A stretch of DNA of 32,232 nucleotides, from contig NZ_JAAHHT010000051.1 of NCBI RefSeq assembly GCF_010672085.1, positions 934 to 33,165 of the forward strand, read 5' to 3'. Under the pieces are notes generated by a model, which worked only from the letters and a program-made list of their open reading frames with translations, was not told the origin of the DNA and ran no database searches. Both the position numbers and the translations under genes were made by a program. Positions 4,260 through 32,232 of the stretch are shown piece after piece. How positions within the stretch are numbered: position 1 is the stretch's first letter; every line of letters begins with the position of its first letter. This stretch comes from Okeania sp. SIO3I5. GTDB taxonomy: Bacteria > Cyanobacteriota > Cyanobacteriia > Cyanobacteriales > Microcoleaceae.

Positions 4260-4846
4260 AGGTATTATTTTTGATTACATGAGTATATATTATCGGTAAT
4301 ATATACACCACCAGACCAATCATGGTAACTAGGATATGGGTTGTAATCATTGTTTTGGAAATTTTTACATTATTCATAATTCATTGGTTGGTTTGTGTGA
4401 TTTTTAATTCAGATGGTGGTGATTATTCTCAGGACAAACGCATCTAAATTCTGTAAGCTCCTGCTGTTAAGCTTTAGAGAAGTAACGAGTATGAATACTC
4501 AGAAGTCTGACATTCTTCCCCTGTCAGAATTTCAAAATAAGATGCGTTTGCCCTGTGGTTATTCTTTTAATCACCCCACTTAGATTAAATATAAAATGTA
4601 CTATTGTCAAATATCAAGTATAAAATATTATATTATTTCAAGCTTGATATTTTTTGATTTTTATTAATAGCCATTTCCAGAAATTAATATTTTACAGGGG
4701 TTTTATGTGAATCATCAGATATATTTAATTAAAGCAATAATTATGTACTAAGTATTTAATAATACCTTTGCCTAAATGTTTATACTTGAAATGATTAATG
4801 GTATAGGTTCGCCAATATTTTGAAGAAGACAAATAATATAAAATCC

Positions 4847-5029
4847 GGTAGTCCTGCTGAGGAATGGCGAAGATACATAAGTTTTGTAATTTCTTCCCAC
4901 ACCTCCCACACCTCCCACACTTCCCACACCTCCCACACCTCCCACACCTCCCACACGAACCAACTTCCCACACCTCCCACACCTCCCACACCTCCCACAC
5001 TCTCTCTACCATTCCTCAGCACCACCACC
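4847..5029 (+). mobile_element. MITE copy A with imperfect ~21-bp terminal inverted repeats and an internal (TCCCACACC)n 9-mer tandem array, flanked by an 8-bp target-site duplication
   Basis: Terminal inverted repeats are 'GGTAGTCCTGCTGAGGAATGG' (left) and 'CCATTCCTCAGCACCACCACC' (right). 'taaaatcc' flanks the element directly at 4839-4846 and 5030-5037. About 11 TCCCACACC-type 9-mers lie inside. Confidence 0.7.
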
Positions 5030-5169
5030 TAAAATCCGGCTAATTAGTTATCGTATAGCACTTTTGCCGCTACGCGGAATTCAAAATTCAAAATTCATGC
5101 ATTATTGGTTAGTAAGGGTTTTAGGATTTTGTAACTGGTCAGTTATTTCTGCCATCCTGTACTAGGAAG

Positions 5170-5960
5170 ATGAGGTAAAATCCCTATTTTCGAGAGCTTC
5201 GGAAAATGAAAATATGGTAGTCCTGCTGAGGAATGGCGAAGATACATAAGTTTTGTAATTTCTTCCCACACGAACCAACTTCCCACACGAACCAACTTCC
5301 CACACCTCCCACACCTCCCACACCTCCCACACTCTCTCTACCATTCCTGAGCACCACCGCCGAAAATATTTCTCCTATTGCTCTTGGGAAAATTCCTGAA
5401 TATGGAAAAGTTTTTTTTGAACGGTTAATTGGGTTGAATAAAAAGTCATGCGTAGGGGCGAACAACCCCATCTAATCTTTAGAATATCACAAAAGTTGTG
5501 AGGAAGCAACGGGAAATCTTTTGACCCCCCGAAATTTTTGGGAGCTTCAGACAATGAAAATGTTCGTGATTTTTGATTGAGCAGGAAGGGAAAGATTTGA
5601 TGAGGGAACAATCTCTATTTCCGAGAGCTTCAGAAAATGAAAATATTTCTGCTATTGCTCTTGGGAAAATTCTTGGATATTGAAAAGGTTTTGTTGAGCG
5701 GTCAATTTGGTTGAATAAAAAGTCATGCGTAGGGGCGAACGAGCCCATCTAATCTTTAGAATATCACAAAAGTTGTGAGGAAGCAACGGGAAATCTTTTG
5801 ACCCCCCGAAATTTTTGGGAGCTTCAGACAATGAAAATGTTCGTGATTTTTTGATTGAGCAGGAAGGGAAAAATTTGATGAGGGAACAATCTCTATTTCC
5901 GGGAGCTTCAGAAAATGAAAATATTTCTGCTATTGCTCTTGGGAAAAAATTGCTTTCGCT
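5170..5960. repeat. Tandem array of ~276-290-bp units (family 1), about 2.7 copies, with the first copy interrupted by MITE copy B
   Basis: The unit landmark 'ttgaataaaaagtcatgcgtaggggcgaac' recurs at 5433 and 5709. 'gagcttcagaaaatgaaaatatttctgctattgctcttggg' recurs at 5626 and 5900, and a partial copy lies at 5180-5215/5370-5400. Each unit is itself built from two related half-units, both containing 'gagcttcagaMaatgaaaatRtt'. Confidence 0.75.
5216..5361 (+). mobile_element. MITE copy B (same family as 4847..5029), inserted into a unit of the ~280-bp tandem array with an 8-bp target-site duplication GAAAATAT
   Basis: The same terminal inverted repeats are present ('ggtagtcctgctgaggaatgg' ... 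'ccattcctgagcaccaccgcc'). 'gaaaatat' lies at 5208-5215 and 5362-5369. Removing the element and one copy of the duplication regenerates the sequence 'gaaaatgaaaatatttctSctattgctcttggg' seen in the intact paralogous unit at 5636-5670. Confidence 0.8.
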
Positions 5961-6044
5961 TTGTCGCTGCGGACGACTCTTAAACCGGATTCTATATTAA
6001 AATTAATTTTAATATTTTCAAATAGATATGAACAGGAAATAAAT

Positions 6045-7172
6045 ATGTTGAAATCGTTAACTATAAATAATTTTCGTTGCTTCCAATCTTTTGAACTTCA
6101 ACAACTTAGCAGAGTTAATTTATTAGTTGGAATGAATAATAGTGGGAAAACTTCAATTTTAGAAGCAATTCAACTTTTATATTCCTTTCATCAACCAGGC
6201 AAATTTCATAAAATGATATTAGATAGAGGAGAATATTTTACGGAAGGCGATCGCCAACTGGATATTCGTCACCTTTTCTATGGGCGTGAAATTTCATTAG
6301 GAAGCGAATTTTCTATAGTAGGAAATAATGGAAAAGAACAGGAAAAGTTCATTGCTTCAATACAAACAGAGTATCCTAATAATTCCGAGCAAGATATATC
6401 AGATAATTCAGAAGAATTTAGAGATGAGTTAGAATCATCAAAAAAACTTGTTTTTATACTTGATTGGCAGAATCAACCAGTAAAAATAAAACGAAATTTA
6501 TCAGATTATGGAGGTGTATATCTGGGAGACTCAAATTGGGCTATATTGGCGACAAAATTAAATACAAGAGTTGCTAAATCAATTGTAAAATCCCAATTTA
6601 TTGCACCATTGTCTCTGAATATTAGAGAAATTAGTAAACTATTTGATGAAATTGTATTAACACCAGAGGAAAATTTGACTCTAGAAGCACTGCAAATTAT
6701 TGAACCTAAAATTGAACGTATTGCTTCAATTGGTCCTGAAAAATACGATTCTAATAATGAAATTGTAGGAGCAAGAGGTGGATTTAGAGTAAAAGTTTCT
6801 GACCAAAAACAACCCATACCTATTGGCAGTATGGGAGAAGGAATATGGCGAATTTTAGCATTAGCGATCGCTCTGGTTTCTGCTCAAGGTGGAGTATTAC
6901 TTGTAGATGAAATTGATACTGGTTTACATTTTTCTACAATGTCTGATATGTGGAAACTTATTTGGAAAACAGCGAAAAAATTAGATGTTCAAGTATTTGC
7001 TACGACTCATAATAGTGATTGTTGGAGTAGTCTTGCGGATGTGATTAAAAGTGAAGGTTTAGAAAGTGAAGAAATTAAAATTCACAGAATAGAAGCTGAT
7101 AAAAATAGTTCTGTAGTTTTCACAGAACCAGAAATTGTTATTGCTGCAAAACGTGACATAGAGGTGCGATAG
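6045..7172 (+). CDS. AAA_21/AAA_15-type ABC ATPase (AbiLi/AriA/OLD-N-like), the ATPase component of a two-gene module
   Basis: The track ORF runs 5961..7172. I place the start at the in-frame ATG at 6045 (MLKSLTINNF...), which has AGGAAA 6 nt upstream. N-terminal 'LTINNFRCFQSFELQQLSRVNLLVGMNNSGKTSILEAI' is the Walker A region. C-terminal 'GGVLLVDEIDTGLHFSTMSDMWKLIW...VQVFATTHNSDC' carries the Walker B, D-loop and H-loop typical of AAA_21. Confidence 0.8.
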   Translation: MLKSLTINNFRCFQSFELQQLSRVNLLVGMNNSGKTSILEAIQLLYSFHQPGKFHKMILDRGEYFTEGDRQLDIRHLFYGREISLGSEFSIVGNNGKEQEKFIASIQTEYPNNSEQDISDNSEEFRDELESSKKLVFILDWQNQPVKIKRNLSDYGGVYLGDSNWAILATKLNTRVAKSIVKSQFIAPLSLNIREISKLFDEIVLTPEENLTLEALQIIEPKIERIASIGPEKYDSNNEIVGARGGFRVKVSDQKQPIPIGSMGEGIWRILALAIALVSAQGGVLLVDEIDTGLHFSTMSDMWKLIWKTAKKLDVQVFATTHNSDCWSSLADVIKSEGLESEEIKIHRIEADKNSSVVFTEPEIVIAAKRDIEVR

Positions 7173-7175
7173 TAA

Positions 7176-8121
7176 TGGCAAAAAAAGGAAGAAAATTACC
7201 TCCTAAAAATAAGCTCTTGGTAGAGGGTGCTGAGGATAAAAGAGTTATTCCATATTTGATAGAAGCGAATGGAGTTCCTTGGGGTGAAAATAAAGAAGAA
7301 GCTTCAACAATTAATAATTAATAATGAATAATGAATAATTAATAATTACCTCTCCTTGAAAAGAAGAGGATTGACTAATTATGAAAATTTTTATTTATTA
7401 TCCCCTGAAAAGGGGAGGCTTTAAACCAAAATTTTTCGGTAAGCATTCAGCACTCAGCTATCAGCTACATTACCTTTAGTTTACAAGTCAAGGTTATCAT
7501 TATTATGCTTAAATTCTTTGGTTAAAAATGGTAGAAGTTCAACTAAATTATGGCTTCATTCATTTAATGAACCAGAAAATACATGGCAAACTATTAGGAA
7601 TGTTTGTTTGCTTAAAAATTAAGGTTGAAAACCTTTGCTTTCAAGGAGAAAAAACAAAAAAATTATTTTTAACCAATCCTTTTATTAAAAAGAAAAGGTA
7701 ATTATTAATTATTAATTATTAATTGTTAATTATTAATTATTGAATAAGTATTCCTGATTTTCCTGAAAATTTACCAGAAACAGGTCTAATTCATAACACT
7801 AATTCTGGTGTTAAATTTGGAGTGTGGATGATGCCAGATAATAAAATGCGTGGGATGCTAGAAACATTTCTAACTTATATGATTCCTGACGAAAATGAAC
7901 CTATTTGGAATTATGCACAAACAGTTGTTATGGAAGCTAAAAATCAAGGTGCGCCATTTATAGAAAATCATAGTGATAAAGCTAATATTCATACATGGTT
8001 AGCTTGGCAAAATCCTCCTGGTCGTCAATTACATAATGCTGTGATGGAAAAAATATTAAATCCAAAACATCCCCAAGCTCAAATATTTATTAACTGGTTT
8101 AAAAAATTATATGACTTGTAA
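7176..8121 (+). pseudogene. Small partner gene of the ATPase, apparently split by a ~430-bp MITE cluster into an N-terminal fragment (7176..7322, 48 aa) and a C-terminal open frame (7744..8121)
   Basis: The ATG at 7176 lies 4 nt after the ATPase stop, indicating translational coupling. Fragment 1 reads 'MAKKGRKLPPKNKLLVEGAEDKRVIPYLIEANGVPWGENKEEAST*' and carries a TOPRIM/DUF4276-like 'LLVEGxxD' motif. The reading frame then ends in AT-heptamer repeats plus the ACCTCTCC-hairpin elements (7313-7743). A second open frame resumes at 7744 ('...ENLPETGLIHNTNSGVKFGVWMMPDNKMRGMLETFL...KLYDL') with no ATG until late; the annotated track start at 7822 is GTG. No frame-restoring junction was identified, and assignment to DUF4276/AbiLii versus DUF4435/AriB is by gene order only. 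Confidence 0.4.
7313..7743. mobile_element. Cluster of small ACCTCTCC-hairpin MITE-like elements plus AT-heptamer arrays
   Basis: The left end reads 'aattacctctccttgaaaagaagaggattgactaa' and a second hairpin 'cccctgaaaaggggaggctttaaacc' follows. The right end 'ttaaccaatccttttattaaaaagaaaaggtaattatta' is an inverted copy of the left end. Both sides are flanked by (AATTATT)n heptamers. The same termini recur at 19437-19560, 26590-26710, 26870-27060 and 28780-29040. Confidence 0.55.
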
Positions 8122-17976: not shown

Positions 17977-19287
17977 ATGTCTTCTTTAGATTCTCAAACT
18001 ATCAATTTTATTCAAAAAATACAACAGCAAATAGCGTCTCTATTGTTATATCAATCTGTTTTAAAAAAAACAGTAGGTGAAGCTTTTATTCAGCTATTAC
18101 AATCTTTGTCTAAAAATGATAGAACTGAAATAGAATACCTTCTAGCTTATGGCAACTGGTTTAGAACTATTGCTAGTCAAAATATTTCCTGGCAAGAATA
18201 TCTAATTTCTCAGATTCTTCAGGATGATAATCCTTTTAGTCAACAAGTTCAAAAAATAGATATTAATACCCTATCTCCAAATTTAATTGCAGCAGCAAAA
18301 CATGATTTACGAATCTTACAAAACCTTTATCAGCTAAGTGGTTACAAAATTAGTAGCTGGGTAGACACAATAGGTAAATTAAACTACACTCCCGTTGCTT
18401 GGGAATTAGAATCAGAAAGAAAAGAACCTATTTATGAACAGTTAAGAAATTTACAAAATTGGTCGGATGCTATTGAGATTTTAGCTACTCATTATCGTCA
18501 TTTTGGTACGGGTTTATTTGCTGAATCAATTGCTTTTGAATGGCGTAATGGTGAACTATTAACTATTACCTATCCCGATCCAGTTAAATTAAAAGAATTA
18601 GTAGGATATGAATTTCAACGAGATACTTTAATTAAAAATACAGAATTTCTCCTAGCAGGATATCCAGCACTTAATGTTTTACTTTATGGTAGTCGTGGTT
18701 CGGGGAAATCTTCCTTAGTAAAAGGTTTATTAAATGAGTATAGTCAACGCAATCTCCGTTTAGTTGAAGTAGCTAAATCAGATTTAAAAGATTTACCATT
18801 AATTATTGAAAAATTACGGAATGTTCCACAAAAATTTATTATCTTTGTTGATGACCTTTCCTTTGAAGAAGATGATGATACCTTTAAAGCTTTAAAAGTT
18901 GTTTTAGAAGGTAATTTAACTGCCAGACCAGCAAATGTGGTAGTCTATGCTACATCAAATAGAAGGCATTTAATAAGAGAATTCTTTAACGATCGCCCTC
19001 GCCCAAAAGATAGTGATGAAATTCATAATTGGGATACAGTTCAAGAAAAGCTTTCTTTTAGCGATCGCTTTGGTTTAACTTTAACTTTTGAACCTGCTAA
19101 CCAAGATACTTATTTAACAATTGTCAGACATCTGGCAAAGCAAGAAAAAATCAATCTAAATCCTAAAGATTTAGACTATCAAGCATTACAATGGGCAACT
19201 AGAAATAATGGTCGTTCTGGGCGAACGGCACGACAATTTATTGATTTTCTCAAAGCTAATGAACAATTAATAATGGATAATGGATAA
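17977..19287 (+). CDS. P-loop ATPase of the DUF815-like family (436 aa)
   Basis: Complete ORF. Walker A is 'LLYGSRGSGKSSLV' and Walker B is 'FIIFVDDLSFEEDDD'. 'VVVYATSNRRHLI' resembles the sensor region. The gene is flanked on both sides by AT heptamer arrays. Confidence 0.7.
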   Translation: MSSLDSQTINFIQKIQQQIASLLLYQSVLKKTVGEAFIQLLQSLSKNDRTEIEYLLAYGNWFRTIASQNISWQEYLISQILQDDNPFSQQVQKIDINTLSPNLIAAAKHDLRILQNLYQLSGYKISSWVDTIGKLNYTPVAWELESERKEPIYEQLRNLQNWSDAIEILATHYRHFGTGLFAESIAFEWRNGELLTITYPDPVKLKELVGYEFQRDTLIKNTEFLLAGYPALNVLLYGSRGSGKSSLVKGLLNEYSQRNLRLVEVAKSDLKDLPLIIEKLRNVPQKFIIFVDDLSFEEDDDTFKALKVVLEGNLTARPANVVVYATSNRRHLIREFFNDRPRPKDSDEIHNWDTVQEKLSFSDRFGLTLTFEPANQDTYLTIVRHLAKQEKINLNPKDLDYQALQWATRNNGRSGRTARQFIDFLKANEQLIMDNG

Positions 19288-19436
19288 TGGATAATTGATA
19301 ATTGATAATTAACTAGCTATTAGCTTTTAGCATTTCCGTTACAGAATGCTATGCAAACAGCTAACAGCTTGTAGGGGCGAATGGCCATTCTTATTGTTGG
19401 GTTTAAATCCCTGGTTTCTATAAACCGGAAGGTTGA

Positions 19437-20899: not shown

Positions 20900-21316
20900 A
20901 TGTCTTTTTACTATAAAAGAATAGTTCATTTTCAAGATACTGATGCTGCGGGTGTGGTTTATTTTGCTAATGTTTTAGCAATTTGCCATGAAGCTTATGA
21001 GAAATCTTTAATAGAATTTGGTATTAATTTGAAGGTTTTTTTTACTAATCAAGAAGTTGCTATTCCAATTATTCATGCTGATGTTGATTTTCGTCGTCCG
21101 ATGTTTTGTGGCGATGAGTTAACTATTGAATTAATTCCTAAAAGTTGGGGAGATGATGAGTTTGAAATTTATTATCAAGTCTTTTTAAAAGAGATGGGAG
21201 AAAAGTGGGTGGCGAGAGCTAATACGAAGCACGTTTGTATCAATCCTCAAACTAGAAGTAGGCAGAAATTATCTGATGAAATTAGGGGATGGTTATTGAG
21301 TTTTGAAAGTTCGTAG
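20900..21316 (+). CDS. Hotdog-fold (4HBT-type) acyl-CoA thioesterase; resembles cyanobacterial 1,4-dihydroxy-2-naphthoyl-CoA hydrolase of phylloquinone synthesis
   Basis: N-terminal 'YKRIVHFQDTDAAGVVYFANVLAICHEAYEKSL' matches the 4HBT/DHNA-CoA thioesterase signature (the FxDTDxxGVV..AN motif with the catalytic Asp). Length 138 aa. Confidence 0.7.
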   Translation: MSFYYKRIVHFQDTDAAGVVYFANVLAICHEAYEKSLIEFGINLKVFFTNQEVAIPIIHADVDFRRPMFCGDELTIELIPKSWGDDEFEIYYQVFLKEMGEKWVARANTKHVCINPQTRSRQKLSDEIRGWLLSFESS

Positions 21317-21439
21317 TTTGGCGAAAATCAAGGAAAAGAAAATGATAGATATGTTTAAACATTTTTTTTGATTTAATAAGTCTTCTTTTGAGGATAGGAT
21401 TTACAATCTTTTTATTTATAAAACCTATTTGTTATCTTT

Positions 21440-22605
21440 TATATTTATTTTCCTTTCTACAATGTTTGCGCGATCGCCTAGGGATAATAAGAATTTTTGA
21501 GTTGAATAAAAAGTCATGCGTATGGGCGAGCTAACCCATATACCTTTTATGATATCACAAAAATTGTCAGGATGGAGCCGAAAATCCTTTGACGCGCTAA
21601 AATTTTTCAGGAGCTTCAGAAAATGACAATGTTATTGGTTTTCCACTCTACAATATTTGCTCGAATATTTGCGCGATCGCCAATAGGCAATAATCTTTTG
21701 AGTTGAATAAATAGTCATGCGTATAGGCAAGTTACCCCTGATAACTTTTATGATATCACAAAAATTGTGAGGATGGAACCGAAAATCCTTTGACCCGCTG
21801 AAATTTTTTAGGAGCTTCACAAAATGACAATGTTATTGATTTTCCACTGAGCAGCTATAGATGGAAAGATTCGACGATGGGAAAAACAAACATATTATAT
21901 TTATGGGAAGCTCTCACAAAATGAAGATATTTCTGGCATTGCTTTGCCAAAGAAAATTCCTAAATACTTGCATTGTCTATTACCAAAGAAATTTGGTTGA
22001 ATAAATAGTCATGCGTATAGGCAAGTTACCCCTGATAACTTTTATGATATCACAAAAATTGTGAGGATGGAACCGAAAATCCTTTGACCCGCTGAATTTT
22101 TTTAGGAGCTTCACAAAATGACAATGTTATTGGTTTTCCACTGAGCAGAGATAGATGGAAAGATTCGACGATGGGAAAAACAAACATATTATATTTATGG
22201 GAAGCTCTCACAAAATGAAGATATTTCTGGCATTGCTTTGTCAAAGAAAATTCCTAAATACTTGCATTGTCTATTACCAAAGAAATTTGGTTGAATAAAT
22301 AGTCATGCGTATAGGCAAGTTACCCCTGATAACTTTTATGATATCACAAAAATTGTCAGGATGGAGCCGAAAATCCTTTGACCCGCTGAATTTTTTTAGG
22401 AGCTTCACAAAATGACAATGTTATTGGTTTTCCACTGAGCAGAGATAGATGGAAAGATTCGACGATGGGAAAAACAAACATATTATATTTATGGGAAGCT
22501 CTCACAAAATGAAGATATTTCTGGTATTGCTTTGCCAAAGAAAATTCCTAAATACTTGCATTGTCTATTACCAAAGAAATTGGGAAACCAAAACAAGGGA
22601 AGACT
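21440..22605. repeat. Tandem array of ~292-bp units (family 2, related to the 5170-5960 array): one short ~206-bp variant followed by three full units
   Basis: 'ttgaataaaWagtcatgcgtatRggc' recurs at 21500, 21703, 21999 and 22291. Units are more than 95% identical to each other. They are homologous to family 1 throughout (for example 'atatcacaaaaRttgtSagga...aaatcYtttgacc...ggagcttcaSaaaatga'), but diverged at about 30%. Confidence 0.75.
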
Positions 22606-22839: not shown

Positions 22840-24033
22840 CTACAACTTCAAACTTAACTGCTCATCAGGCGGACTAAAACCCAAATGCCTCCAACCGGCA
22901 GAAGTCACAACCCGACCACGAGGAGTACGCTGCATAAACCCAATCTGCATCAAATATGGCTCATAAACCTCCTCAATAGTTTGAGCATCCTCCCCCGTCG
23001 CTGCCGCCATAGTCTCCAAACCAGCAGGTCCCCCATTATAATTCTCAATCATCGTCCTCAATAAATTACGGTCCGTCCAATCCAAACCCAGAGGGTCAAC
23101 ATTAAACAACTCTAAAGCTTCACCTGCAACCTCAGCATTTATCGGAGTCAACTTTTTCACTTCCGAATAATCTCTCACCCTCCGCAGTAAACGATTAGCA
23201 ATTCGAGGCGTACCACGGGAACGACGGGCAACCTCCTCAGCACCATCCTCCGTAATATCCGTATTTAAAAGTTTTGCTGCTCGGATAATAATTAAACTCA
23301 GTTCATCAACCTCATAAAACCGTAACCTCTGAATAATTCCGAAGCGATCGCGTAGAGGAGAAGTCAAAGAACCAACTCTAGTAGTTGCTCCTACCAAAGT
23401 AAAAGGTTTGAGAGGAATGCTCCTAGTCTTAGAAGTTTTACCTTGCCCGACTGTAATATCGAGTCGAAAATCTTCCATCGCCGGATATAGAATTTCTTCT
23501 GTCATTTTAGAAAGGCGATGAATTTCATCTATAAACAAAATATCCCCTTTTTGTAAACCTACTAGCAAACCAACTATATCTCTAGGTTTTTCAATAGCAG
23601 GTGCAGTAGTAATTTTACAATTAACTTCCATTTCTGCTGCCAATATTAGAGACATAGTAGTTTTGCCCAATCCCGGAGGACCATACAAAAGTAAATGGTC
23701 TAGAGATTCCTTTCTAGATTTAGCTGCCGAAATCGCAATATTCAATACTTCTTTCAGGTCTTTCTGCCCAATATATTCATCTAACCTTTGAGGTCGGATT
23801 TTTTCTTCATTTTGATTACTACCTTTTTCCTCAGTAGTTGCCTCTACTGCCAATAAAGCATCTAATTCCGCTGATTCAGATTGAGATTGTGATTTTTTGG
23901 TCTTATATGAAGTTTTTTTTTCGGAGGCGAAGAAAATGTTTTCATCTGGCCTTTCTGGTTGAGGAGATTGTTTTTTAGAAGAAATTATGGCCATAACTAC
24001 AAAATTAGAGCTAACATCCTTATTATCATACAA
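22840..24033 (-). CDS. ruvB: Holliday-junction branch-migration ATPase RuvB, with an N-terminal ~60-aa low-complexity extension
   Basis: '[22 protein letters not shown]' is Walker A and '[11 protein letters not shown]' is Walker B. Also present are '[22 protein letters not shown]' and the C-terminal winged-helix region '[31 protein letters not shown]'. An alternative internal start (Met14, about 23994) is possible. Confidence 0.9.
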
Positions 24034-24628: not shown

Positions 24629-24842
24629 AATTAGGGTTTGTTGATTAAATATAAAAGCATTTACAGATAAAGTCTAAAGTCTTTTTAGGTTGAAAAAAGT
24701 GCGTTTGTTTCAATTAAAAACGCTCAAAAAGTTAGCATTTTTGGCAAGATTTTGGAAAAAAATTACTCTTCTGCTCCTTAAAAATACTTTTTCAGCAAAC
24801 CCTAATTATCAATAAAAATACTTTTTCAGCAAACCCTAATTA
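24629..24842 (+). mobile_element. MITE-like element (AATTAGGGTTTG terminal inverted repeat family) with duplicated right terminus
   Basis: The left end 'ctaattagggtttgttgattaaat' is at 24627. The right end 'ctttttcagcaaaccctaattatcaat' occurs twice in tandem (24787-24808 and 24821-24842). Confidence 0.55.
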
Positions 24843-25104
24843 TCAATTATTAATTACCAAAAAATTGTGTAATTAATTTTGCTTATGCACTTATCAACTA
24901 TCAATTATTCATTAAACTGTTAAGCATTTAAGCCGCATATTTGTTCTGTGCGCAGTTAAGAATAAAATCCTTATTAATTCTGTACGGGTGATTCGCAAAT
25001 CATCCCTACTTCCTTCTGATTTCTGACTGGCTAAAACGCATTTTAAATGTGTCTTATATTAGGTTGCATTAATTAACCACAATACAAAAAGACGGTATAG
25101 ATAA

Positions 25105-25230: not shown

Positions 25231-25321
25231 AAAGATAGCTAGATTTATTATGGCTAATTAATGTGACTTGATATTAGCTTATCAATTATCCATTATCAAT
25301 TATCAATTATCCATTATCCAG

Positions 25322-26210: not shown

Positions 26211-26466
26211 TAATTAGGGTTTGCTGATTAAAGTTTAAAGCTTTTACAGATAAAGGTTTTAGCCGTTTTCTGTGTTGAAGAAGTACAAGGTTTTTGCTAC
26301 GCAAGAGCTGCAAAAAGTTAGGATTAAAGGGTTAACTATTGGCATAAAAATCAAGGGATAATTCTTATTTATGCCTCCTCTAAATTCCTTAATACTCCAG
26401 TTTCAAGTCTCCTATCTCCTGACTCTTACCCTCACCCATAATACTTTTTCAGCAAACCCTAATTAC
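26211..26466 (+). mobile_element. MITE-like element with terminal inverted repeats TAATTAGGGTTTGCTGATTAAAG ... CTTTTTCAGCAAACCCTAATTA
   Basis: Both termini are present. The internal sequence 'aaaaatcaagggataattct...cctctaaattcctta...ctcctgactcttaccctcaccc' is shared with the 13263-13620 copy. Confidence 0.6.

Positions 26467-29062: not shown

Positions 29063-32232
<3,170 letters not shown>

Follow-up and report, generated by a model that had tools for sequence, protein, structure and literature searches.

Introduction

Tandem direct repeats that carry a promoter in each repeat and give rise to a small non-coding RNA (ncRNA) are known from filamentous cyanobacteria. NsiR1 is encoded at a single locus near hetF in heterocyst formers, as a 60-nt, HetR-dependent RNA with a DIF motif (TCCGGA) at the -35 position (Ionescu et al., 2010; PMC4030482). 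In Trichodesmium erythraeum IMS101, an intergenic array of more than 6 kb, made up of seven units of 736-973 bp that each have their own transcription start, yields the most abundant ncRNA of the cell; this array includes duplicated fragments of flanking genes, and its authors called it a unique locus without similarity elsewhere in the genome (PMC4143802). Here, we describe a tandem array in a 32,232-nt stretch of Okeania sp. SIO3I5 (contig NZ_JAAHHT010000051.1, positions 934 to 33,165 of the forward strand; this whole stretch is referred to as the window), together with the family of dispersed intergenic repeats to which it belongs. The array resembles that of NsiR1 in being composed of tandem direct repeats in a filamentous cyanobacterium, with a promoter in each repeat (here predicted from sequence) and a small ncRNA as its putative product. 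Unlike NsiR1, however, the family is found at no fewer than 125 dispersed loci beside unrelated genes in non-heterocystous Microcoleaceae, its -35 element is TTGCAT, and no DIF motif, no sequence or Rfam match and no terminator on the strand predicted to be transcribed were found. With the seven-unit array of IMS101 it shares the lineage and the intergenic tandem arrangement, but the units of that array are three times longer and have no sequence relation to those described here, and the present family is dispersed over several genera. The idea that the family is the source of this abundant repeat-derived ncRNA was rejected, since that repeat is a different and larger one.

Among other bacteria, the MIRUs of mycobacteria, the BOX elements of pneumococci and the Correia elements of Neisseria are dispersed intergenic repeats with a variable tandem number or with embedded promoters or terminators. 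The family is like them in its many intergenic loci, its copy-number differences at orthologous loci and its modular build. It has no homology, however, to MIRUs, which measure 46-101 bp and overlap flanking open reading frames (ORFs), or to Correia elements, which are MITEs (miniature inverted-repeat transposable elements) that have terminal inverted repeats together with a TA duplication and are not tandem; terminal inverted repeats and target duplications were not seen in the present family. The MIRU-like presence of differing unit numbers at the same locus is a likeness of behaviour only and not of descent. REP elements are 20-40 bp long and have stems conserved by pairing. Like REP and BIME sequences, the family is intergenic and clustered and has a GTAG-headed, GC-rich palindrome motif in its core consensus, but the stem lacks family-wide support, the unit measures 175-475 bp and no RAYT is linked to it. 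The family lacks the defining features of the NsiR1 array, of the seven-unit IMS101 array and of dispersed repeats such as MIRUs or Correia elements, yet it unites behaviours that are found among them, namely many loci, arrays of variable number and a (predicted) promoter in each unit.

A Dispersed Repeat Family with a Conserved Core

The array under study lies between the genes for a thioesterase and RuvB, where a first-pass annotation of the window had placed it, although with a period of 292 bp and a short unit of 206 bp where we find 294 and 201 bp. It covers positions 21502-22584 and consists of three 294-bp units (U1-U3) and one 201-bp unit (U0), all head-to-tail (Table 1). Tandem Repeats Finder reports 21697-22581 with a period of 294, 3.0 copies and 98% matches, and in a repeat search of the window, units begin at 21702, 21996 and 22290 and are preceded, at a spacing of 201 nt, by a diverged copy that starts at 21501. 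U1-U3 are 97.3-98.3% identical in pairwise comparison, while U0 shares 88% identity with U1 in the first 150 nt and is unrelated to it thereafter. The window holds a second, sister array, labelled family 1 (the array under study being family 2). The two are homologous and collinear throughout, as the annotation had stated. Whole units of the two arrays share 68% identity, rising to 77-79% in the first 150 nt. Six occurrences of the 21-mer TTGAATAAAWAGTCATGCGTA were counted in the window, each inside one of the two arrays, where 0.01 are expected.

Both arrays belong to a much larger family. A pattern scan with TTGAATAAANAGTCATGCGTA, using one genome per species, returned at least 114 8-kb stretches with a match; among the matches listed all are from Microcoleaceae, the hosts being Okeania spp., Trichodesmium including T. 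erythraeum IMS101, Dapis spp. and related metagenome-assembled genomes (MAGs). A metagenome scan added 47 further stretches. With a profile made from the window's units, 415 copies were found in 125 arrays of 1-13 units, and the family amounts to at least 125 arrays across 18 Microcoleaceae genomes (Okeania, Trichodesmium and Dapis). It is restricted to this one clade. Searches of viral, phage and plasmid collections with units and tails gave no matches, and an origin from any of these was rejected on that ground; the searchable literature yielded no description of the family or of its 15-mer. Many metagenome contigs (L125, L128, L134, L140 and others) end in or beside a core, the repeat breaking assemblies.

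Each unit is composed of a conserved core of ~125 bp and a variable tail of 50-350 bp, with profile coverage and conservation dropping past core position ~125. Arrays begin sharply at GTTGAATAAAAAGTCAT, and 84 of the 92 arrays that are not cut by the end of their locus start exactly at core position 1. Read on the plus strand, the core contains in order the blocks GTTGAATAAAAAGTCATGCGTA, GGCGA, TATCA, GATGCAAG, a T-run and GAGCTTCAnAnAATGA; the first 17 nt of GTTGAATAAAAAGTCATGCGTA are at least 90% conserved, even in 130 copies that lie outside the search-pattern selection. First cores at unrelated loci are preceded by a conserved leader of ~70 nt (TATCTTTTACATTGATTTTCCTTTCTACAACATT...AAACTATAC..TTTTAG). 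The leader in the window aligns with those of L044 (IMS101), L124, L130, L143, L162, L171, L152 and L154, with TTTTCC..TCT.CA invariant.

The tail of the short unit repeats the leader. In the window, 21440-21501 matches 21637-21702, such that the tail of U0 (segment 21647-21702) is a second copy of the leader, with its own HIP1 site at 21672-21679. The short unit is therefore the common short form of the family, a core with a short tail, and not a defective one; 49 of 248 complete units measure 180-240 bp, which bears out the short form as a natural one. A reading of the U0 tail as duplicated unique flank was dropped, given that the same leader is found at other loci. The long 294-bp form has an expanded tail in which only a ~25-nt motif, GAGCTTCA...ATGA, is repeated. 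This motif is all that the second half of a unit has in common with the first, and the half-unit proposed earlier as the basic module finds no support in the comparison.

A Predicted Promoter on the Minus Strand of the Core

The minus strand of the core carries, at a fixed place, a sigma-70-type motif made up of TTGCAT, a 17-nt spacer and an extended -10 element, TGnTAnnnT. TTGnnn-17-TGnTAnnnT is found on this strand in 204 of 348 distinct copies (spacer of 17 nt in 202 of them), compared with none on the plus strand and an average of 2.9 in shuffles. Conservation by position was calculated for 148 representatives with a mutual identity of at most 85%. Within the -10 hexamer, the values are 0.94 (T), 1.0 (A), 0.43 (n), 0.47 (n), 0.69 (A) and 0.93 (T), and the preceding TG reaches 0.88 and 1.0; positions just outside the -10 lie at 0.47-0.64, and those of the -35 TTGCAT at 0.74-0.84. 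An invariant T1, A2 and T6 around a free middle is the outcome of selection for a -10 element, and the profile of the core, as read from these columns, is the signature of such an element. The motif accounts for two of the conserved blocks, TATCA and GATGCAAG. Further upstream, the plus-strand T-run becomes a minus-strand A-tract at about -55 to -62 that resembles an UP element, and just past it, at about -63 to -80 from the predicted start, lies block 5 with GAGCTTCA...ATGA. The predicted family-1 promoters on the minus strand have the sequence TTGCTT-17-TGATATTCT.

In 133 of the 204 copies, transcription is predicted to start at an A seven nucleotides after the -10. This start would open an initial transcribed region of ~45 nt, the last 22 nt of which (UACGCAUGACUUUUUAUUCAAC) are almost invariant. 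The predicted RNA would open with AUUGGGGGUUGUUCGCCCCUACGCAUGACUUUUUAUUCAAC, its putative invariant seed is ACUUUUUAUUCAAC, and a second conserved block, GUAGAAAGGAAAAUCAAU, follows in the tail or leader.

Taken as a promoter, the minus-strand core would be a complete cassette of upstream block, A-tract, -35 TTGCAT, 17-bp spacer and extended -10 TGnTAnnnT. Transcription would start ~40 nt inside the core, exit across the sharp core boundary and run through the neighbouring tail, with the transcript of the first unit continuing into the ~70-nt leader; in the window, the leader would form the 3′ part of the RNA started in U0. Because each transcript would begin inside a core and run into a tail, each unit would be a small ncRNA gene. 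We put the chances that every unit is a minus-strand transcription unit for an ncRNA at about even. The arrays are most likely batteries of small ncRNA genes, or selfish promoter-bearing repeats, and not protein genes. We infer that the promoters would fire and that their product would be non-coding, and we favour for this product a regulatory or antisense role, as an RNA made from many copies and sharing a conserved 5′ seed.

Several observations weigh against these ncRNA genes. The -35 of the family-2 units in the window is degenerate (TTCCAT or CTCCAT), with only the extended -10 intact, and the copies of the family share descent, so the motif counts are not independent events. A terminator for the predicted RNA was sought and none was found, the stability of the RNA is not above that of shuffles (z from -0.5 to -1.2), nine first-unit RNAs give a weak consensus fold, and no target, partner protein or phenotype is known for it. 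A generic promoter and terminator scanner found nothing above shuffles; its failure to find the promoter is explained by TTGCAT scoring only 3/6 against TTGACA. The placement of the arrays, which tend to keep out of divergent (promoter) gaps and lie preferentially at gene 3′ ends, as tolerated selfish DNA does, also belongs on this side and is taken up below.

Coding Potential of the Two Strands

The first-pass annotation had taken the units for a functional gene family on the plus strand, with a Shine-Dalgarno (SD) GGAG, a 9-nt spacer and an ATG, encoding peptides such as MTMLLVFH and MKIFLALLC... that concerted evolution would keep uniform. There is some material for this idea, in that GGAGCTTCAsAAAATGA is conserved (nine matches against 0.25 expected), an 8-codon ORF, M-K-x-L-V-x-F-H, recurs with hydrophobic substitutions, and third codon positions show a slight deficit in conservation (0.56 compared with 0.74-0.77). 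However, no more than 61 of 250 copies retain the 8-codon ORF, conservation is weak at the GG of the putative SD, with many copies reading TGAGCT, GTGCT or TAGCT, and the second ORF ends differently among copies. The longest ORF from this ATG in any copy is 77 aa. A plus-strand promoter with TTCACA of block 5 as its -35 was tried and rejected, as TAnnnT follows at 16-18 nt in no more than 9 of 303 copies, the per-position background being ~2%. We consider plus-strand genes extremely improbable, and this part of the annotation does not stand. The idea that a real gene or a transposase has its 5′ end in the core was likewise rejected, because no long ORF begins there.

Micro-proteins on the minus strand, starting at the ATG of block 1 (ATGACTTTTTATTCAAC, MTFYST) with a common N-terminus and variable bodies, fare little better and are judged highly unlikely. 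Of 370 copies, 363 have this ATG and 313 encode MTFYST; the ATG follows the predicted start at a distance of ~25 nt, and 8 of 207 copies read through to a stop inside block 5. Nevertheless, 180 of the 207 ORFs end before the next conserved block, the median of ~16 aa is the random expectation for AT-rich sequence, and there is no SD. Moreover, in 50 diverse copies the columns that would be third codon positions (2, 5, 8 and 11) never vary, in contrast to those of first and second positions; coding constraint would give the reverse. On neither strand did a search for a small-protein gene family find a maintained ORF with a coding-type substitution pattern.

RNA Structure, CRISPR-Like Arrays and Mobile Elements

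A conserved module followed by variable sequence, with its own promoter in each repeat, could also suggest a structured RNA or ribozyme, or CRISPR-like guide arrays in which a conserved scaffold carries a variable 'spacer'; for type II-C CRISPR systems, a promoter in each repeat is likewise reported. This is the least probable of the readings considered. No Rfam family (Rfam 15) matched at the gathering threshold, with nothing meaningful at E values up to 10, and consensus folding with alifold returned no structure. CRISPR arrays have short repeats of 23-50 bp, unique spacers and cas genes nearby. In the CRISPR test, the conserved part measured 125 bp, neighbouring tails, which would be the 'spacers', proved homologous (97-98% identical in the window array), and no neighbour genes, cas or other partner, were enriched or linked. 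Tails and units were equally without matches in the phage, plasmid and viral collections.

Another reading takes the core as the recognition module of a single-strand (HUH) transposase, either REP/RAYT-like or an IS200/IS605-derived PATE, with a GTAG-headed GC hairpin near one core end and a second hairpin near the other; arrays would form by insertion beside an existing copy. A GTAG followed by a GC-rich palindrome is the hallmark of REP elements, and the consensus core does have GTAG immediately before GGGG-N7-CCCC. The left boundary is sharp and highly conserved, and fragments of TnpB/OrfB_IS605 are seen close to some arrays, and also downstream of ruvB in L115. The hairpin is the one in which the annotation had noted paired changes, and these differences are real within the window. 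Across 50 diverse copies, however, 62% of cells pair compared with 64% in a slid register, one base pair has 7 double changes and 16 unpaired cells, no net covariation is evident, and the minimum free energy of -4.3 kcal/mol improves on the -3.3 of shuffles by only ~1 kcal/mol. A canonical placement of the second hairpin beside the T-run is limited to 23 of 146 representatives and is not seen in any unit of the window or of IMS101, and a plus-strand terminator as a general feature was rejected on the same counts. No transposase family is enriched within the 8-kb stretches around copies, and the L115 fragment region contains no core-like sequence. Altogether, we regard an HUH module as very unlikely. 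A test for MITEs, with three units from two genomes, found no consistent inverted termini, no complementarity between core ends and no duplication at array ends. The OrfB_IS605 (TnpB) fragment of L115, the closest relative, lies at 7874-8218, at the position that the array has in the window.

Evolution and Genomic Setting of the Arrays

Units are more alike within arrays than between them, as the annotation had observed in the window. Family-wide, cores are 88% identical within an array and 69% identical across arrays, and for 237 of 324 units the nearest relative belongs to the same array. The annotation had read this as two separate families under concerted evolution, and the wider sample supports it on neither count. 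Within single genomes, each with 37-58 units, the identities between loci form one broad peak at 55-90%, and single linkage at 80% identity merges most units. As these distributions are unimodal, the 'two families' of the window are two samples of one continuum. Furthermore, when orthologous arrays are compared between species, the individual units retain their orthology and the number of copies differs. One set of orthologous loci has 8, 5, 5 and 6 units (L004, L047, L014 and L055), a variant being single in L014 and L055 and triplicated in L004; a second has 10, 13 and 9 units (L033, L043 and L041), and a third has 3 and 5 (L028 and IMS101). In many further orthologous arrays, copy number is the sole difference. 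Array evolution is therefore birth-and-death by local duplication and not full homogenization. Through local duplication and unequal recombination, arrays gain and lose units while staying at one site across species.

The two arrays of the window fit this pattern. The family-1 array has an orthologue of three units in L010, at 87-88% identity. For the family-2 array, the orthologue is a 3-unit array that immediately follows the thioesterase gene in L124 (a Trichodesmium sp. MAG), where a single alignment of 83.5% identity runs from the thioesterase gene through into the first core, and the core of U0 is orthologous to the first unit of L124. In three closer relatives, no array is present on the 3′ side of the thioesterase gene. 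On the other side, homology with relatives ends at the stop codon of ruvB, and the relatives have no cores there. Because synteny ends at this stop codon, the family-2 array sits at a rearrangement breakpoint.

Throughout the family, the arrays are intergenic, with 5 of 125 overlapping an ORF of at least 120 aa, and 31 are located in convergent gaps compared with 7 in divergent gaps. This is the distribution expected under the main rival to ncRNA genes, that of selfish or neutral satellite-like DNA which spread once and shifts in copy number by slippage and unequal recombination, with a promoter-like motif that is incidental or serves the element and brings the host no gain. Such DNA would persist where insertion is least harmful. 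Also in keeping with it are the copy-number variation of orthologous arrays, the cores being barely better conserved than the tails between orthologous units (87.4% and 83.4%), the three close relatives with no array after the thioesterase gene, the synteny breakpoint at the family-2 array and the lack of detectable RNA structure. On the other hand, the -10/-35 profile and a near-invariant block of 17-22 nt are hard to obtain without selection at a mean identity of 69%, the arrays stay at the same sites across genera (L028 compared with IMS101), and the analysis revealed neither terminal inverted repeats nor target duplications nor a linked transposase. We consider selfish DNA unlikely, though it is a serious contender.

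The genes beside the arrays offer no common partner. The annotation had suggested checking whether arrays always lie next to the same gene types; when 205 neighbouring proteins were clustered, only groups from orthologous loci emerged, with no gene family enriched and no linked partner. Pairs of filled and empty sites, sought in order to define the insertion ends, gave no clean case, the one candidate being spurious. In T. erythraeum IMS101 (L044), ~170 bp with the 5′ end of the downstream gene are also present upstream of the array (6100-6240 and 7830-7960, found by eye), and the array is accordingly bracketed by a long direct repeat. The cores of this array lie at 38,380-39,511 of NC_008312, and its predicted reverse-strand starts fall near 38,420, 38,699, 38,987, 39,260 and 39,551.

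Table 1. Coordinates and strands of the arrays, predicted promoters and flanking genes in the window.
Feature	Position	Strand	Details
Unit U0, short form (201 bp)	21502-21702	+	Core 21502-21626, short tail 21627-21702; nhmmer match, profile positions 1-146
Unit U1 (294 bp)	21703-21996	+	Core 21703-21827, long tail 21828-21996
Unit U2 (294 bp)	21997-22290	+	Core 21997-22121, tail 22122-22290
Unit U3 (294 bp), end of array	22291-22584	+	Core 22291-22415, tail 22416-22584
Array leader, short-tail type 'X'	21423-21501	-	TGTTATCTTTTATATTTATTTTCCTTTCTACAATGTTTGC...TTTTTGAG; HIP1 site GCGATCGC at 21470-21477
Block 1, left core end GTTGAATAAAWAGTCATGCGTA	21501-21523		Again at 21702, 21996, 22290; family 1: 5433, 5710
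Block 5 GGAGCTTCAsAAAATGA, right core end	21610-21626		Again at 21811, 22105, 22399
Predicted promoter, U0	21549-21577	-	-35 CTCCAT (21572-21577), 17 nt, TGA + -10 TATCAT (21549-21557); start near 21541-21543, towards lower coordinates
Predicted promoter, U1	21750-21778	-	-35 TTCCAT (21773-21778), 17 nt, TGATATCAT (21750-21758); start ~21742-21744
Predicted promoter, U2	22044-22072	-	-35 TTCCAT (22067-22072), 17 nt, TGATATCAT (22044-22052); start ~22036-22038
Predicted promoter, U3	22338-22366	-	-35 CTCCAT (22361-22366), 17 nt, TGATATCAT (22338-22346); start ~22330-22332
Sister array (family 1)	5362-5947	+	Partial tail 5362-5433, unit 5434-5710, truncated unit 5711-5947
4HBT-type thioesterase, flanking	20900-21316	+	Array adjoins its 3′ end, as in L124; protein 100% identical to one of an Okeania sp. 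SIO3I5 MAG
ruvB, flanking	22840-24033	-	Other side of array

Other Features of the Window

Directly downstream of the family-1 array lies a gene for an AAA_15/AAA_21 (AbiEii/OLD-like) ATPase (5961-7172, plus strand), as is also the case in L010. Two MITE-like inserts, found by eye at 4820-5030 and 5215-5365, have the inverted ends GTCCTGCTGAGGAATGG ... CCATTCCTSAGCAC with runs of the nonamer TCCCACACC between them; the insert at 5215-5365 splits a family-1 unit and has a duplicated GAAAATAT on both sides, again by eye. The block that leads up to the thioesterase gene (MVP - Tmemb_14 - DUF815 ATPase - TerB - thioesterase) is syntenic in relatives, and its MVP ORF (13657-16437, plus strand) encodes 926 aa with the domains of a eukaryote-type Major Vault Protein (Vault repeats, Vault_2/3/4 and MVP_shoulder).

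The window is rich in other repeats. A different dispersed repeat, 66-86% identical among copies and containing ACTTTTTCAGCAAACCCTA, is present at 882-997, 13505-13620 and 26346-26461 (also 24786-24865), and it is often found just upstream of long ORFs. Positions 1-300 and 519-818 form a 300-nt direct repeat of 99% identity at a spacing of 518 nt. At 31185-32232 there is a long tandem repeat whose nested periods measure 69, 162, 231 and 300 nt; as it overlaps minus-strand ORFs, it probably encodes a repetitive protein. Heptamer runs (AATTAAT, TTATCAA and ATAATGG) of the STRR type typical of filamentous cyanobacteria occur throughout the window, for example at 7309-7348, 16426-16482, 19257-19310 and 25279-25318.

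Discussion

As marine nitrogen fixers, Trichodesmium and its relatives are of global importance, and their genomes are ~40% non-coding. In T. erythraeum, 1,621 transcription start sites (26.7%) are intergenic, an unusually high share, abundant ncRNAs overlap gene 3′ ends, and the transcriptomes of the lineage are dominated by ncRNAs of obscure origin (PMC4143802). The published primary-transcriptome library of T. erythraeum IMS101 (Pfreundt et al., 2014) left out RNAs below 300 nt. The leftmost predicted promoter of the window, with a start at ~21542, would point at the 3′ end of the thioesterase gene, and the resulting 3′-3′ geometry resembles that of several abundant T. erythraeum ncRNAs (PMC4143802), which is an analogy and not a link.

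In its strongest form, the proposal is that the cores are active promoters of an undescribed class of multi-copy small-RNA genes, with hundreds of units per genome and an invariant 5′ seed, in Trichodesmium, Okeania and Dapis. As a read-through transcript would hold a whole permuted unit, the family could even spread by an RNA intermediate via the abundant reverse transcriptases of the lineage. We hold this proposal to be improbable; if true, it would explain a sizeable part of the non-coding DNA of the clade and of the excess of intergenic starts. The family remains relevant to assembly and annotation even if the cores are silent, since contigs break at the repeat and gene callers place spurious small ORFs in it. 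It would also provide recombination substrates for rearrangement, a role suggested by the position of the window array at a synteny breakpoint. Should the units be ncRNA genes, their hundreds of intergenic promoters, most of them directed towards gene 3′ ends, would represent a testable source of both the non-coding DNA and the ncRNAs of these organisms.

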